Below, piece after piece: positions 20,822-21,899 of a stretch of DNA of 64,000 nt; the first letter of the stretch is position 1, and each line of letters opens with the position of its first letter. The DNA is from a virus (Duplodnaviria; Heunggongvirae; Uroviricota; Caudoviricetes). The stretch lies in the IMG/VR virus record IMGVR_UViG_2541047759_000001; one strand, 5' to 3'. Both the position numbers and the translations under genes were made by a program. The notes beneath the pieces were generated by a model. That model had not been told where the DNA came from. It did no database searches and saw only the letters and a list, made by a program, of their open reading frames with translations.

Positions 20822-21148
20822 ATGAAAAGACGCCTTTTACTACTTTTTCTGTTATCTGTCCTGGCAGTGGGATGCTCGCAGCAAAAAGCTGATGAGCCCC
20901 GGCAATTAGTGACGGTGTATCCACGATATCCGGAATATGCTGCAGCAAATTATATCAAGGGGCTGGTTGAGGTTAAGTTCGATATTGGTGCTGATGGGAC
21001 TGTGACACGGATCGTTTTTCTCCGCTCAGAGCCTCATAATTTGTTTCGTGATGAAGTGGTGAAGGCCATGGCGAAATGGCGATTTGAAAAGAATCGCCCC
21101 TGTCAGGGAGTGAAGAGACAATTTATCTTTACGCCGTCACGTCCTTGA
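20822..21148 (+). CDS. Lipoprotein with TonB C-terminal-like domain (moron)
   Basis: MKRRLLLLFLLSVLAVGC lipobox; ...YPRYPEYAAANYIKGLVEVKFDIGADGTV... resembles TonB-C fold signature. Confidence 0.55.
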   Translation: MKRRLLLLFLLSVLAVGCSQQKADEPRQLVTVYPRYPEYAAANYIKGLVEVKFDIGADGTVTRIVFLRSEPHNLFRDEVVKAMAKWRFEKNRPCQGVKRQFIFTPSRP

Positions 21149-21511
21149 TGCTTCCAGGTAGAGAGGGGCTGGACGCAGGAGAAAAATGAAAGAGCCAGCG
21201 GTTATATTTTTGTCATGGCTGACGAGGAATGATGGAAGAAGGCGTTGTATGCCACACAACGCCTCACTGTTCATTTCTTCTTTTTCTCTGGTGGAACCCG
21301 ATGAATAAGAGTTGCACTGGTTTCCGATGAGATGGCGATATACTCGGGCAAAGTATGCTGGCAGTTTTCCAACTGGTCAAAAATACCTGCTCTCGTCTGT
21401 TGCAATGCCTGCAGCATGCGGCGGCAATGCGCCTTGCTTTTACTAACCATCTTTCCTTCCTCTATCAGTCGCTGCGTGAACTCATCATGTAATACCAGGT
21501 AAATGCGGATG

Positions 21512-21763
21512 TTATCGGTTTTGGCTACGCAGCATAGTACAAAACGGACAGGTGCATCCCGGGACGGGGGAGGCGTCACATGTCCCTGTGATGGTTGTTC
21601 CGGGTAATGCACTGTGTGGGGCATAAAAATGTCCGATAATTTTACTTTCTACCGCAGTTAGTTGATTCGTTGGTCCTGGTAGCACATTGGGCGAGGATTT
21701 AAATGCCAGGCAACTGAAGGATGATGTTGCAAGGGAGATAGCGAGAATATTTCTGATTTTCAT
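21512..21763 (-). CDS. Secreted hypothetical protein (possible frameshifted gene with 21271..21624)
   Basis: MKIRNILAISLATSSFSCLA signal peptide; overlaps a second minus-strand ORF in another frame. Confidence 0.35.
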   Translation of the reverse strand: MKIRNILAISLATSSFSCLAFKSSPNVLPGPTNQLTAVESKIIGHFYAPHSALPGTTITGTCDASPVPGCTCPFCTMLRSQNR

Positions 21764-21899
21764 TTGATGATGCCTCTGTGTGAAATGACGGTAAACGACG
21801 CACTTGTGCCGGCACATAATAGCAAGCACCATAATAGATCAGATTCGATTCTTGCTGTAAGTGATAATTATTCTCGTTTTCGGGTCCTTTCCGTCGATC

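Follow-up and report, generated by a model that had tools for sequence, protein, structure and literature searches.

Immediately to the left of the cos site in a 64,000-nucleotide stretch of DNA (IMG/VR virus record IMGVR_UViG_2541047759_000001, Caudoviricetes; the whole stretch is called the window below), a plus-strand gene for a predicted lipoprotein with a TonB C-terminal domain (the TonB_C gene) faces two overlapping minus-strand open reading frames (ORFs), which we call ORF1 and ORF2. Our comparisons indicate that this region very probably holds two independent and intact accessory genes, the TonB_C gene and ORF1, which converge on a non-coding spacer, and that no broken gene is involved. 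An earlier note on the same DNA had placed the three ORFs correctly just left of cos, and its term "moron cluster" is reasonable as a description of position. Its further proposal, that the two minus-strand ORFs are pieces of a frameshifted envelope-protein gene, is contradicted by the homologues of ORF1, which are complete and end in its own frame, and by ORF2, which is a chance frame. Together with the gene roles proposed below, this anatomy gives what we consider the best explanation as a whole, held with slightly better than even confidence. The TonB_C annotation was already known; what had been overlooked is the conserved family of small secreted-type proteins to which ORF1 belongs. The features of the block are as follows.

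20822-21148, plus strand: TonB_C lipoprotein gene, 108 amino acids (aa); Shine-Dalgarno sequence AGGA at 20812-20815, 6 nt before the ATG
20822-20875, plus strand: predicted lipoprotein signal peptide and lipobox with Cys18 (LAVG-C), read from the sequence
20918-21118, plus strand: TonB_C domain (Pfam), residues 33-99; the alignment to TonB runs on to residue 103 (equivalent to F230)
21149-21511 (363 bp): lineage-specific spacer between the convergent TonB_C gene and ORF1, judged non-coding
21186-21308, plus strand: ORF in the spacer called by CPT
21271-21624, minus strand: ORF2, 117 aa, chance frame; its first 37 codons overlap ORF1 out of frame, and the remainder lies in the spacer, across a mosaic junction
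21271-21450, minus strand: 59-aa sub-ORF in the spacer, part of the ORF2 frame
21355-21492, plus strand: ORF in the spacer called by the Prokaryotic Genome Annotation Pipeline (PGAP)
21512-21763, minus strand: ORF1, 83 aa, four-cysteine predicted secreted protein; start ATG at 21763-21761; Shine-Dalgarno sequence AGAGG (plus-strand cctct at 21773-21777), 9 nt upstream
21527-21586, minus strand: conserved C-terminal motif of ORF1, GTCDASPVPGCTCPFCTMLR (residues 60-79), from an alignment of 27 homologues
21566-21570: G5 run (C5 on the minus strand), where the loss of one base fuses ORF1 to ORF2
21704-21763, minus strand: predicted Sec signal peptide of ORF1, MKIRNILAISLATSSFSCLA, cut before FK at an AxA-type signal peptidase I site

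ORF1, ORF2 and the spacer

ORF1 is a complete gene. When the fused ORF1-ORF2 sequence was scanned with HMMER against 1.84 billion representative proteins, diverged relatives (80 to 83 aa) were recovered for the ORF1 part alone, and the ORF2 part had no diverged homologue in that set, its matches being limited to near-identical or error-laden sequences. The full-length ORF1 homologues are 78 to 84 aa long and end where ORF1 ends, with the family C-terminus GTCxASPVPGCxC(P/A/S)FCTMLR followed by 2 to 5 residues in ORF1's own frame. Across the 27 aligned homologues, C62, P66, C72, C75, L78 and R79 are invariant, and G60, V67, G69, C70, F74 and M77 are conserved in at least 90%. Extension of the family by profile search and by a scan of species-representative genomes placed members in Salmonella enterica subspecies salamae, arizonae, diarizonae and indica, and also in Citrobacter, Klebsiella (including a plasmid), Buttiauxella, Pantoea, Raoultella, Rahnella and Superficieibacter. 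ORF1 is under purifying selection: compared with the window, the homologues show proportions of non-synonymous differences (pN) of 0.16 to 0.44 and of synonymous differences (pS) of 0.65 to 0.89, the third codon position dominates (for example 17:11:50), and in the C-terminal part pN is 0.04 to 0.21 against a pS of at least 0.61. Among 76 further copies, taken from IMG/VR and reference records, ORF1 carries no stop or indel.

ORF2 is a chance frame spanning the 3' end of ORF1 and the spacer. The two minus-strand ORFs do overlap in different frames, by 113 nt, as the earlier note had stated; its own counter-possibility, two unrelated chance frames, holds for ORF2 and fails for ORF1, which is a real gene. 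A frame of 117 aa is unremarkable here, because several antisense ORFs of 120 to 126 aa overlap known genes within the same 5 kb. The homology also breaks at this place. Other 21-like prophages share 82% DNA identity with the window through terminase, cos and ORF1; the similarity stops at 21516, the stop of ORF1, and resumes at 20684, downstream of Rz, a DUF3950 gene lying in between in those prophages. The homology to Salmonella and Klebsiella loci ends at 21510-21516, and a break at these positions was found in 9 of the 12 compared loci, the other three matching just the 5' part of ORF1. In locus L040, whose TonB_C protein is 85% identical and whose DNA is 72 to 77% identical to the window, the TonB_C gene and the ORF1 homologue converge with only 24 bp between their stops, and window positions 21150-21521 are absent.

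Among phage records we found no diverged relative of the spacer DNA. Over the 76 copies it contains 20 polymorphic sites, including two frameshifting indels (in 4 of the 76), stop gains at 21294 and 21459 and a stop-loss at 21490. The ratio of synonymous to non-synonymous polymorphisms is 5:11 for ORF2 (where the overlap with ORF1 contributes three of the 5 synonymous sites), 2:7 for the 59-aa sub-ORF, 0:7 for the PGAP plus-strand ORF and 2:3 for the CPT plus-strand ORF. Because the segment is absent in L040, has no diverged relatives, carries stops and frameshifts and shows no synonymous excess, we read 21149-21511 as non-coding.

It is quite improbable, on this evidence, that the spacer codes after all, either through the 59-aa minus-strand ORF in an operon with ORF1 or through the plus-strand ORFs at 21355-21492 and 21186-21308 behind the TonB_C gene. 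Coding would fit the good ribosome-binding sequences before 21450 on the minus strand (a strong Shine-Dalgarno sequence, GAGGAAGGAAAG, before the ATG) and before 21186 on the plus strand, the PHROG families for both (phrog_4843 and phrog_3744), the plus-strand calls by PGAP and by the phage 21 annotators, and the presence of a 363-bp gene-free stretch, which is unusual for a phage genome. However, the two PHROG families could be mere gene calls on near-identical DNA, and neither the lack of diverged homologues for the minus frame, the 59-aa ORF included, and of diverged phage relatives for the DNA, nor the polymorphism ratios, frameshifts and stop changes, nor the loss of the whole segment in L040 is what a coding spacer would predict. 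For the plus-strand ORFs the protein-level search covered Pfam, NCBIfam and PHROGs. The spacer likewise has no similarity to DUF3950, the occupant of the same position in L028 and JLK-2012. We considered the 59-aa ORF as a degenerate DUF3950 gene (PF13132; YlcI/YnfO) and rejected this, with no BLASTP alignment at E≤100 to the DUF3950 genes of L028 and JLK-2012; against Pfam the 59-aa ORF gave no match at E≤10, and the L028 DUF3950 gene matched at 1.5e-17.

The frameshift idea turns on the G5 run. Removing one G at 21566-21570 gives a fused ORF of 165 codons, fused 165-aa proteins do occur in databases (P0001, with 54 member sequences), and PGAP annotates the fused ORF in both RefSeq genomes that carry a G4 allele, those of strains 3385 and 25DN. 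The genomes behind P0001, however, have 6 to 9 indels per 1436 bp and shattered terminase genes. Of the two RefSeq genomes with G4, one looks clean and the other carries a frameshift in the adjacent terminase gene. G4 was found in 2 of 1222 complete Escherichia coli genomes and in none of the 76 further copies; the 65-mer around the run, with G5, is identical in 1129 of the 1222. Phage 21, which was isolated from sewage in the 1950s, itself has G5. The P0001 matches were thus rejected as support for a frameshift, the source genomes being indel-ridden and the G4 allele rare, and P0019 and P0020 were rejected as diverged homologues, for they come from contigs with 110 to 171 gaps relative to the window and are read-error artefacts of long-read contigs. 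The entries that seem to repair the frameshift trace to L003-L009 (GCA_0532915xx/0532916xx assemblies and Logan ERR3077528 contigs), which illustrates that "intact" database proteins seeming to mend a frameshift can stem from indel-ridden long-read assemblies. The earlier note had suggested a comparison with intact homologues, and no diverged homologue was found to span both ORFs: every one of them stops at ORF1's stop in ORF1's frame. With the ORF2 part also devoid of diverged homologues, missing from L040 and L028 and marked by stop and frameshift polymorphisms, it is extremely unlikely that a single gene of about 165 aa for an envelope or secreted protein has been divided into ORF1 and ORF2 by a +1-nt frameshift at 21566-21570, be it a pseudogene, an error of sequencing, or a gene with phase variation or programmed frameshifting.

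The TonB_C lipoprotein

The product of 20822-21148 is a TonB C-terminal-domain protein. The earlier note had suspected a lipoprotein of this kind, and the suspicion was borne out by the domain, sequence and fold matches given here and by a lipobox cysteine that is invariant in 8 homologues. Pfam PF03544 (TonB_C) matches residues 33-99 with E=7.3e-13 and 49.2 bits against a cut-off of 24.6, TIGR01352 scores 47.4 bits against a cut-off of 27.1, and TonB C-terminal domains in the PDB match with E=1e-14. In the HMMER alignment the 108-aa product corresponds to E. coli TonB 151-230 at about 42% identity, phage residue n being equivalent to TonB residue n+127, and the C-terminus of the phage protein is equivalent to TonB T235. 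The YP motif is retained (Y163 and P164 of TonB are Y36 and P37), as are the aromatic residues (F180, F202, W213, Y215 and F230 are F53, F75, W86, F88 and F103). Residues 97-103 supply a strand at the position of TonB beta-3 (VKRQFIF, compared with IVVNILF in TonB), and it is beta-3 with which the FhuA TonB box pairs (PMC11658791). An AF2 model built on a shallow alignment has the helix-strand-strand-helix-strand order expected for this domain. In a Foldseek search of the PDB the best 13 matches were all TonB or FusB C-terminal domains (probability 0.91 to 1.00), with template modelling scores of 0.36 to 0.47 (query-normalised) and 0.28 to 0.60 (target-normalised) for a model of modest quality; the top matches, 7zc8, 2gsk_B and 2grx_C, include TonB as bound to BtuB and FhuA. 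Prior annotations agree, with CPT_21_73 of phage 21 named "TonB C-terminal domain protein" and WP_000830178.1 named "TonB family protein" by PGAP.

Judged from its sequence, the protein is not a TonB energy transducer, because it has no transmembrane anchor and no proline-rich spacer and its equivalog scores lie far under the cut-offs. Instead of an N-terminal transmembrane anchor with its His motif, the N-terminus MKRRLLLLFLLSVLAVGC, followed by SQQ, is a predicted cleavable lipoprotein signal that contains no His, and just about 14 residues (SQQKADEPRQLVTV) separate Cys18 from the domain. Against the TonB equivalog families (NCBIfam PRK10819 equivalogs) the protein scores 45 to 69 bits where the cut-offs are 265 to 448, with the match confined to profile positions of about 150-240; the best comparison reaches 69 of 315 bits. 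The 8 homologues, which reach down to 39% identity in a Klebsiella phage protein, all keep the KRR n-region, the Leu-rich h-region, Gly17 at -1 and Cys18 at +1. In E. coli the sorting of lipoproteins is governed by the +2 rule, and outer-membrane sorting would be expected here because the +2 residue is Ser.

The TonB_C gene is under purifying selection. Compared with the allele of the JLK-2012 phage, whose protein is 72% identical, the ratio of non-synonymous to synonymous substitution rates (dN/dS) is about 0.12 and the differences by codon position are 20:17:52. Among near-identical copies, 9 polymorphisms are synonymous and 4 are non-synonymous; the signal peptide holds two of the 4. An intact copy of the gene is present in 1222 genomes, as it is in phages that can be induced or form plaques.

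Of the mechanisms considered, we think it most likely that the TonB_C lipoprotein acts as a TonB decoy, a role whose chance we put somewhat below even. Anchored at the outer membrane, the domain would pair with the TonB boxes of TonB-dependent transporters through its beta-3 edge, as in the FhuA-TonB complex (PMC11658791). Because the lipoprotein has no connection to ExbB/ExbD, the bound domain would deliver no energy, and pairing of this sort would therefore make it a dominant-negative decoy competing with host TonB. With such a decoy, fewer TonB-dependent phages (T1, phi80 and similar), group B colicins and microcins would get into the cell, and the price would be some loss of siderophore uptake. 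Its likeness to the E. coli TonB C-terminal domain (about 150-239; PDB 1U07, 1XX3, 2GSK and 2GRX) extends over homology, YP motif, aromatic residues, secondary-structure order and the beta-3 position; unlike TonB, it has a predicted lipoprotein signal and a short linker in place of the membrane anchor and spacer, hence no ExbB/ExbD link.

Known systems offer partial precedents. Periplasmically expressed TonB fragments are described as inhibiting TonB-dependent import (Howard et al. 2001, J Bacteriol 183:5885, as cited in PMC9841981). The fragments share with the proposed decoy the working principle of a soluble TonB periplasmic domain with no energy coupling, and differ in being laboratory constructs with a foreign signal peptide, whereas here we have a natural phage gene whose product is presumably lipid-anchored at the outer membrane. 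Small phage lipoproteins that act on TonB-dependent transport from the inner face of the outer membrane form the other comparison; they are of the superinfection-exclusion type, and the proposed decoy would act in a similar way. Cor of phi80, N15 and HK022 is a small outer-membrane lipoprotein that inactivates FhuA from the periplasmic side. Llp of T5, a small phage lipoprotein in the inner leaflet of the outer membrane, likewise inactivates the TonB-dependent transporter FhuA from the periplasm (bioRxiv 10.64898/2026.03.26.714494). No homology to either was found (Pfam gives TonB_C alone). The expected range also differs: Cor and Llp are directed at a single receptor, and a TonB_C decoy, working through the shared TonB box, should affect many.

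Several points weigh against the decoy. TonB R158, Q160 and R166, which we take to be implicated in TonB-box or receptor contacts, are T31, Y33 and Y39 in the phage protein, and these changes could mean that binding is weakened or retargeted. The AF2 model is of mediocre quality, with a predicted local distance difference test (pLDDT) value of 61 overall and 63 to 79 in the domain. At -3 the lipobox has Ala, where homologues have Ser, Val or Leu, and so departs from the strict pattern [LVI][ASTVI][GAS]C. A cost in iron uptake is to be expected of any decoy. We found no literature on a phage TonB-like protein or on the function of this lipoprotein. Finally, no sigma-70 promoter-like site was found on the plus strand upstream of the gene; with no promoter of its own seen, the gene may be read from the late transcript only, which would imply a lytic role rather than one in the lysogen. 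The best match to a Fur box upstream of the gene is 11/19, the background level.

A different view, which we regard as unlikely, ties the lipoprotein to the lytic cycle or envelope biology of the phage itself, as a lysis accessory or spanin-like protein, a tether to peptidoglycan or the outer membrane, or a serum-resistance or virulence factor like Bor/Iss. The gene does lie on the late strand directly after Rz/Rz1, with no promoter-like site on that strand, and it adjoins bor or iss in phage 21 and in the prophages of PMV-1 and strain 3385. Its PHROGs family, phrog_1267 (E=5e-43), carries the label "Rz-like spanin" in the lysis category. This label fits badly, because the protein is a globular TonB_C domain and the phage has its own Rz/Rz1, and probably reflects gene position: a complete and separate Rz and Rz1 pair is already present in the prophage, and the TonB_C protein has no C-terminal transmembrane helix and is not a short proline-rich o-spanin. 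The TonB-type residues are moreover kept under purifying selection, for which a TonB-like binding activity is the simplest explanation. It is very unlikely that the gene is an inert captured piece of host tonB with no selected function, as older annotations ("partial" or "truncated" TonB, "TonB fragment") and the ~42% identity to the E. coli domain might suggest, given the low dN/dS, the 9:4 polymorphism, the dedicated signal peptide, whose Cys stays invariant in homologues of E. coli and Klebsiella phages as distant as 39% identity, and the intact state of the gene across genomes and active phages.

If the decoy reading is right, an outer-membrane-tethered TonB domain would shield the lysogen broadly against TonB-dependent phages, group B colicins and microcins. 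Immunity conferred by a prophage would then work on a new principle, exclusion at the shared energy-coupling step and not at one receptor. Such a decoy would also matter for phage therapy, for the ecology of colicins and microcins, and for how lineages of extraintestinal pathogenic E. coli, in which the gene lies beside the virulence marker iss, acquire iron.

The ORF1 product and the Fur-box-like site

By inspection, the N-terminus of ORF1 has the Sec-type features that the earlier note had seen in it, with a basic n-region (MKIRN), a hydrophobic core (ILAISLATSSFS) and small residues at -3 and -1 in C-L-A, which is predicted to be cut before F. L19, A20 and F21 are invariant in the 27 homologues, and more distant members have A-x-A. 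A lipobox was considered and rejected, Cys18 not being conserved and Ala standing there in many homologues. Cleavage of the 83-aa precursor by signal peptidase I would leave about 62 aa, with FKSSPN as the expected mature N-terminus, as a protein that stays in the periplasm or is released, in which the C-x7-C-x-C-x2-C motif most likely forms a disulfide-locked or metal-binding knot. The family gave no significant match in Pfam (all 27 members), NCBIfam, PHROGs, PADLOC or, by profile, the PDB sequences. The phage 21 record and the RefSeq records inspected have no feature at the ORF1 position; PGAP calls the fused ORF where G4 is present and did not call ORF1 in the G5 records inspected. A selected small protein is thus absent from these annotations, while unconstrained spacer ORFs get called. 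ORF1 shares the niche between Rz and cos with the other lambdoid right-end morons (bor/iss, DUF3950 ylcI/ynfO, ybcV/ybcW), and differs from them in having no sequence relation to any and in belonging to a family absent from Pfam, NCBIfam and PHROG.

About 100 bp upstream of ORF1 lies a candidate regulatory site.

21862-21876: Fur-box-like palindrome TGATAATTATTCTCG, between ORF1 and cosQ; 13/15 matches to TGATAATnATTATCA

It is the sole site in the window of the 7-1-7 palindrome type TGATAATnATTATCA, with 0.10 expected by chance, and also the best 19-mer Fur-box match of the window (15/19). The aligned position is conserved in L028 (15/15), L040 (13/15) and phage lambda (15/15). Fur sites are known upstream of nohA and nohB, the Nu1 homologues of the cryptic prophages Qin and DLP12 in K-12, and the nohA site is bound by Fur in a gel shift (PMC2189734). 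The present site resembles these in its palindrome type and in where it lies with respect to cos and Nu1 (some 238 bp before Nu1, with the nohA site at -233; PMC2189734), and differs from them in its two mismatches, both in one arm. As a separate observation, the palindrome stands immediately left of cosQ in diverged lambdoid cos regions (also L033 and L036); the lambda site is perfect, TGATAATCATTATCA, 6 nt from GGGTCCT (L041 2551-2567, lambda about 48450-48466).

ORF1 may thus be controlled by Fur. Its transcription would run leftward out of the intergenic region near cos, and in the lysogen a shortage of iron may turn it on. Some ORF1 homologues have neighbours related to metals, namely a divergent operon of FecI/FecR and a TonB-dependent receptor, a FUR-family regulator with CobW, a CsoR/RcnR-like repressor with a major facilitator superfamily transporter and, also listed as metal-related, a TOBE protein. 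On these grounds we suggest tentatively that ORF1 encodes an iron- or metal-responsive envelope mini-protein, a suggestion more likely wrong than right by a good measure. It is opposed by several observations. The metal theme appears in just 3 to 4 of about 10 contexts, the others having SPFH, fimbrial or LysR neighbours, and the predicted structure is poor (pLDDT 54). The Fur-like site keeps a fixed distance to cosQ and not to ORF1, and it occurs also in lambda, where the leftward gene differs; its target gene is uncertain because of this register, and it may serve cos or Nu1 rather than ORF1. In addition, ORF1 and the TonB_C gene were found together only in this block and in L040, which speaks against any joint role.

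The two genes are independent. Homologues of ORF1 occur apart from the TonB_C gene in other 21-like prophages, in Salmonella islands, on a Klebsiella plasmid and in several chromosomes; the 72%-identical TonB_C allele occurs apart from ORF1 in JLK-2012 and Stx1a phages, where YlcI/YnfO, HNH and terminase genes follow it. No joint function is implied, because they co-occur in this block and in L040 only, and functional linkage was rejected on the same ground. The gene arrangement suggests one possible history, in which ORF1 and bor once formed a leftward pair and the TonB_C cassette entered it later. In other 21-like prophages the ORF1 homologue adjoins the DUF3950 gene, and in the Salmonella islands it lies directly upstream of a Bor homologue.

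These islands, in S. enterica subsp. salamae, diarizonae and arizonae (L014, L018 and L019), are of virulence type, with the order serine protease autotransporter of Enterobacteriaceae (SPATE), PPC-domain protein, ORF1 homologue, Bor homologue and omptin; in L014 an LRR-NEL (E3 ligase effector) gene comes after them. On the 211-kb Klebsiella plasmid CP024459.1, the ORF1 homologue is near a FUR-family regulator and a CobW GTPase, and it is preceded by relic cosN, cosQ and Fur-box sequences (L036, about 3330-3760), which suggests that a piece of a lambdoid cos region brought it to the plasmid. In phage lambda (NC_001416), an unannotated 64-aa minus-strand ORF lies at ORF1's position, between lambdap79 and cos (L041 2210-2404, about 48109-48303); by eye it closely resembles the 63-aa DUF3950 (YlcI/YnfO-type) gene of L028.

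Taken jointly, the proposals would mean that a block present in about a fifth of complete E. coli genomes encodes a phage-borne dominant-negative TonB together with a Fur-controlled, secreted four-cysteine mini-protein family, and we think it rather unlikely that this holds in full. If it does, lambdoid cos regions would be the source from which the ORF1 family reached virulence islands of Salmonella and plasmids of Klebsiella.

Genomic setting of the block

A lambdoid prophage with the packaging module of phage 21 has its late region at window positions 19000-24600. Over positions 20602-21911 the DNA shares 99.7% identity with the right end of phage 21 (OL657228), and the end of that genome maps to window position 21911. 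The surrounding features are listed below.

19023-19556: lysozyme gene
20038-20511: Rz (Pfam Phage_lysis, E=2e-47)
20264-20449: Rz1, embedded in Rz
21882-21888, plus strand: cosQ, GGGTCCT, mapped from the phage 21 record OL657228
21911/21912: cosN nick between these positions, the right genome end, with the cohesive end GGGCGGCGACCT from 21912, mapped from OL657228
22107-22616: Nu1, right of cos
22531-24516: large terminase subunit gene

The stretch 20600-22100 was found in 1222 of 5426 complete E. coli genomes, presence being defined as coverage of at least 80% of its length, and the identity is almost always at least 99%; Nissle 1917 and ST131 isolates are examples of strains with the block. 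In the E. coli and Klebsiella phages examined, the gene order is lysis cassette, TonB_C gene and packaging genes. The block often adjoins bor or iss (in phage 21 and, among the E. coli prophages examined, PMV-1 and strain 3385); in phage 21 bor is on ORF1's strand, further left, beyond the TonB_C gene, and it is absent from this window.

A promoter scan gave promoter-like matches at chance level, with no convincing promoter for the TonB_C gene or ORF1, and an Rfam scan of 20400-22200 gave nothing beyond a chance miRNA match (E=0.99). The count of terminator-like sites is somewhat high (4, with 1.4 expected), and none lies within the spacer 21149-21511. A small ORF at 20667-20804 (45 aa, hypothetical CPT_21_72 in phage 21) was rejected as a gene, its frame being broken in L040 and JLK-2012 by 14- and 17-nt indels. 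Some 75 to 85 bp upstream of the TonB_C start there is an invariant GATAAT, a candidate -10 element. Just 3' of Rz, positions 20512-20690 are about 90% conserved among lineages whose TonB_C genes are 72 to 85% identical, a conservation exceeding that of the TonB_C coding sequence; of the 4785 E. coli records with a partial match to the query region, most appear to owe it to these positions. This segment holds G+C-rich hairpins, for example CCGCG-9 nt-CGCGG followed by GTTT, and may be a terminator or an RNA element.

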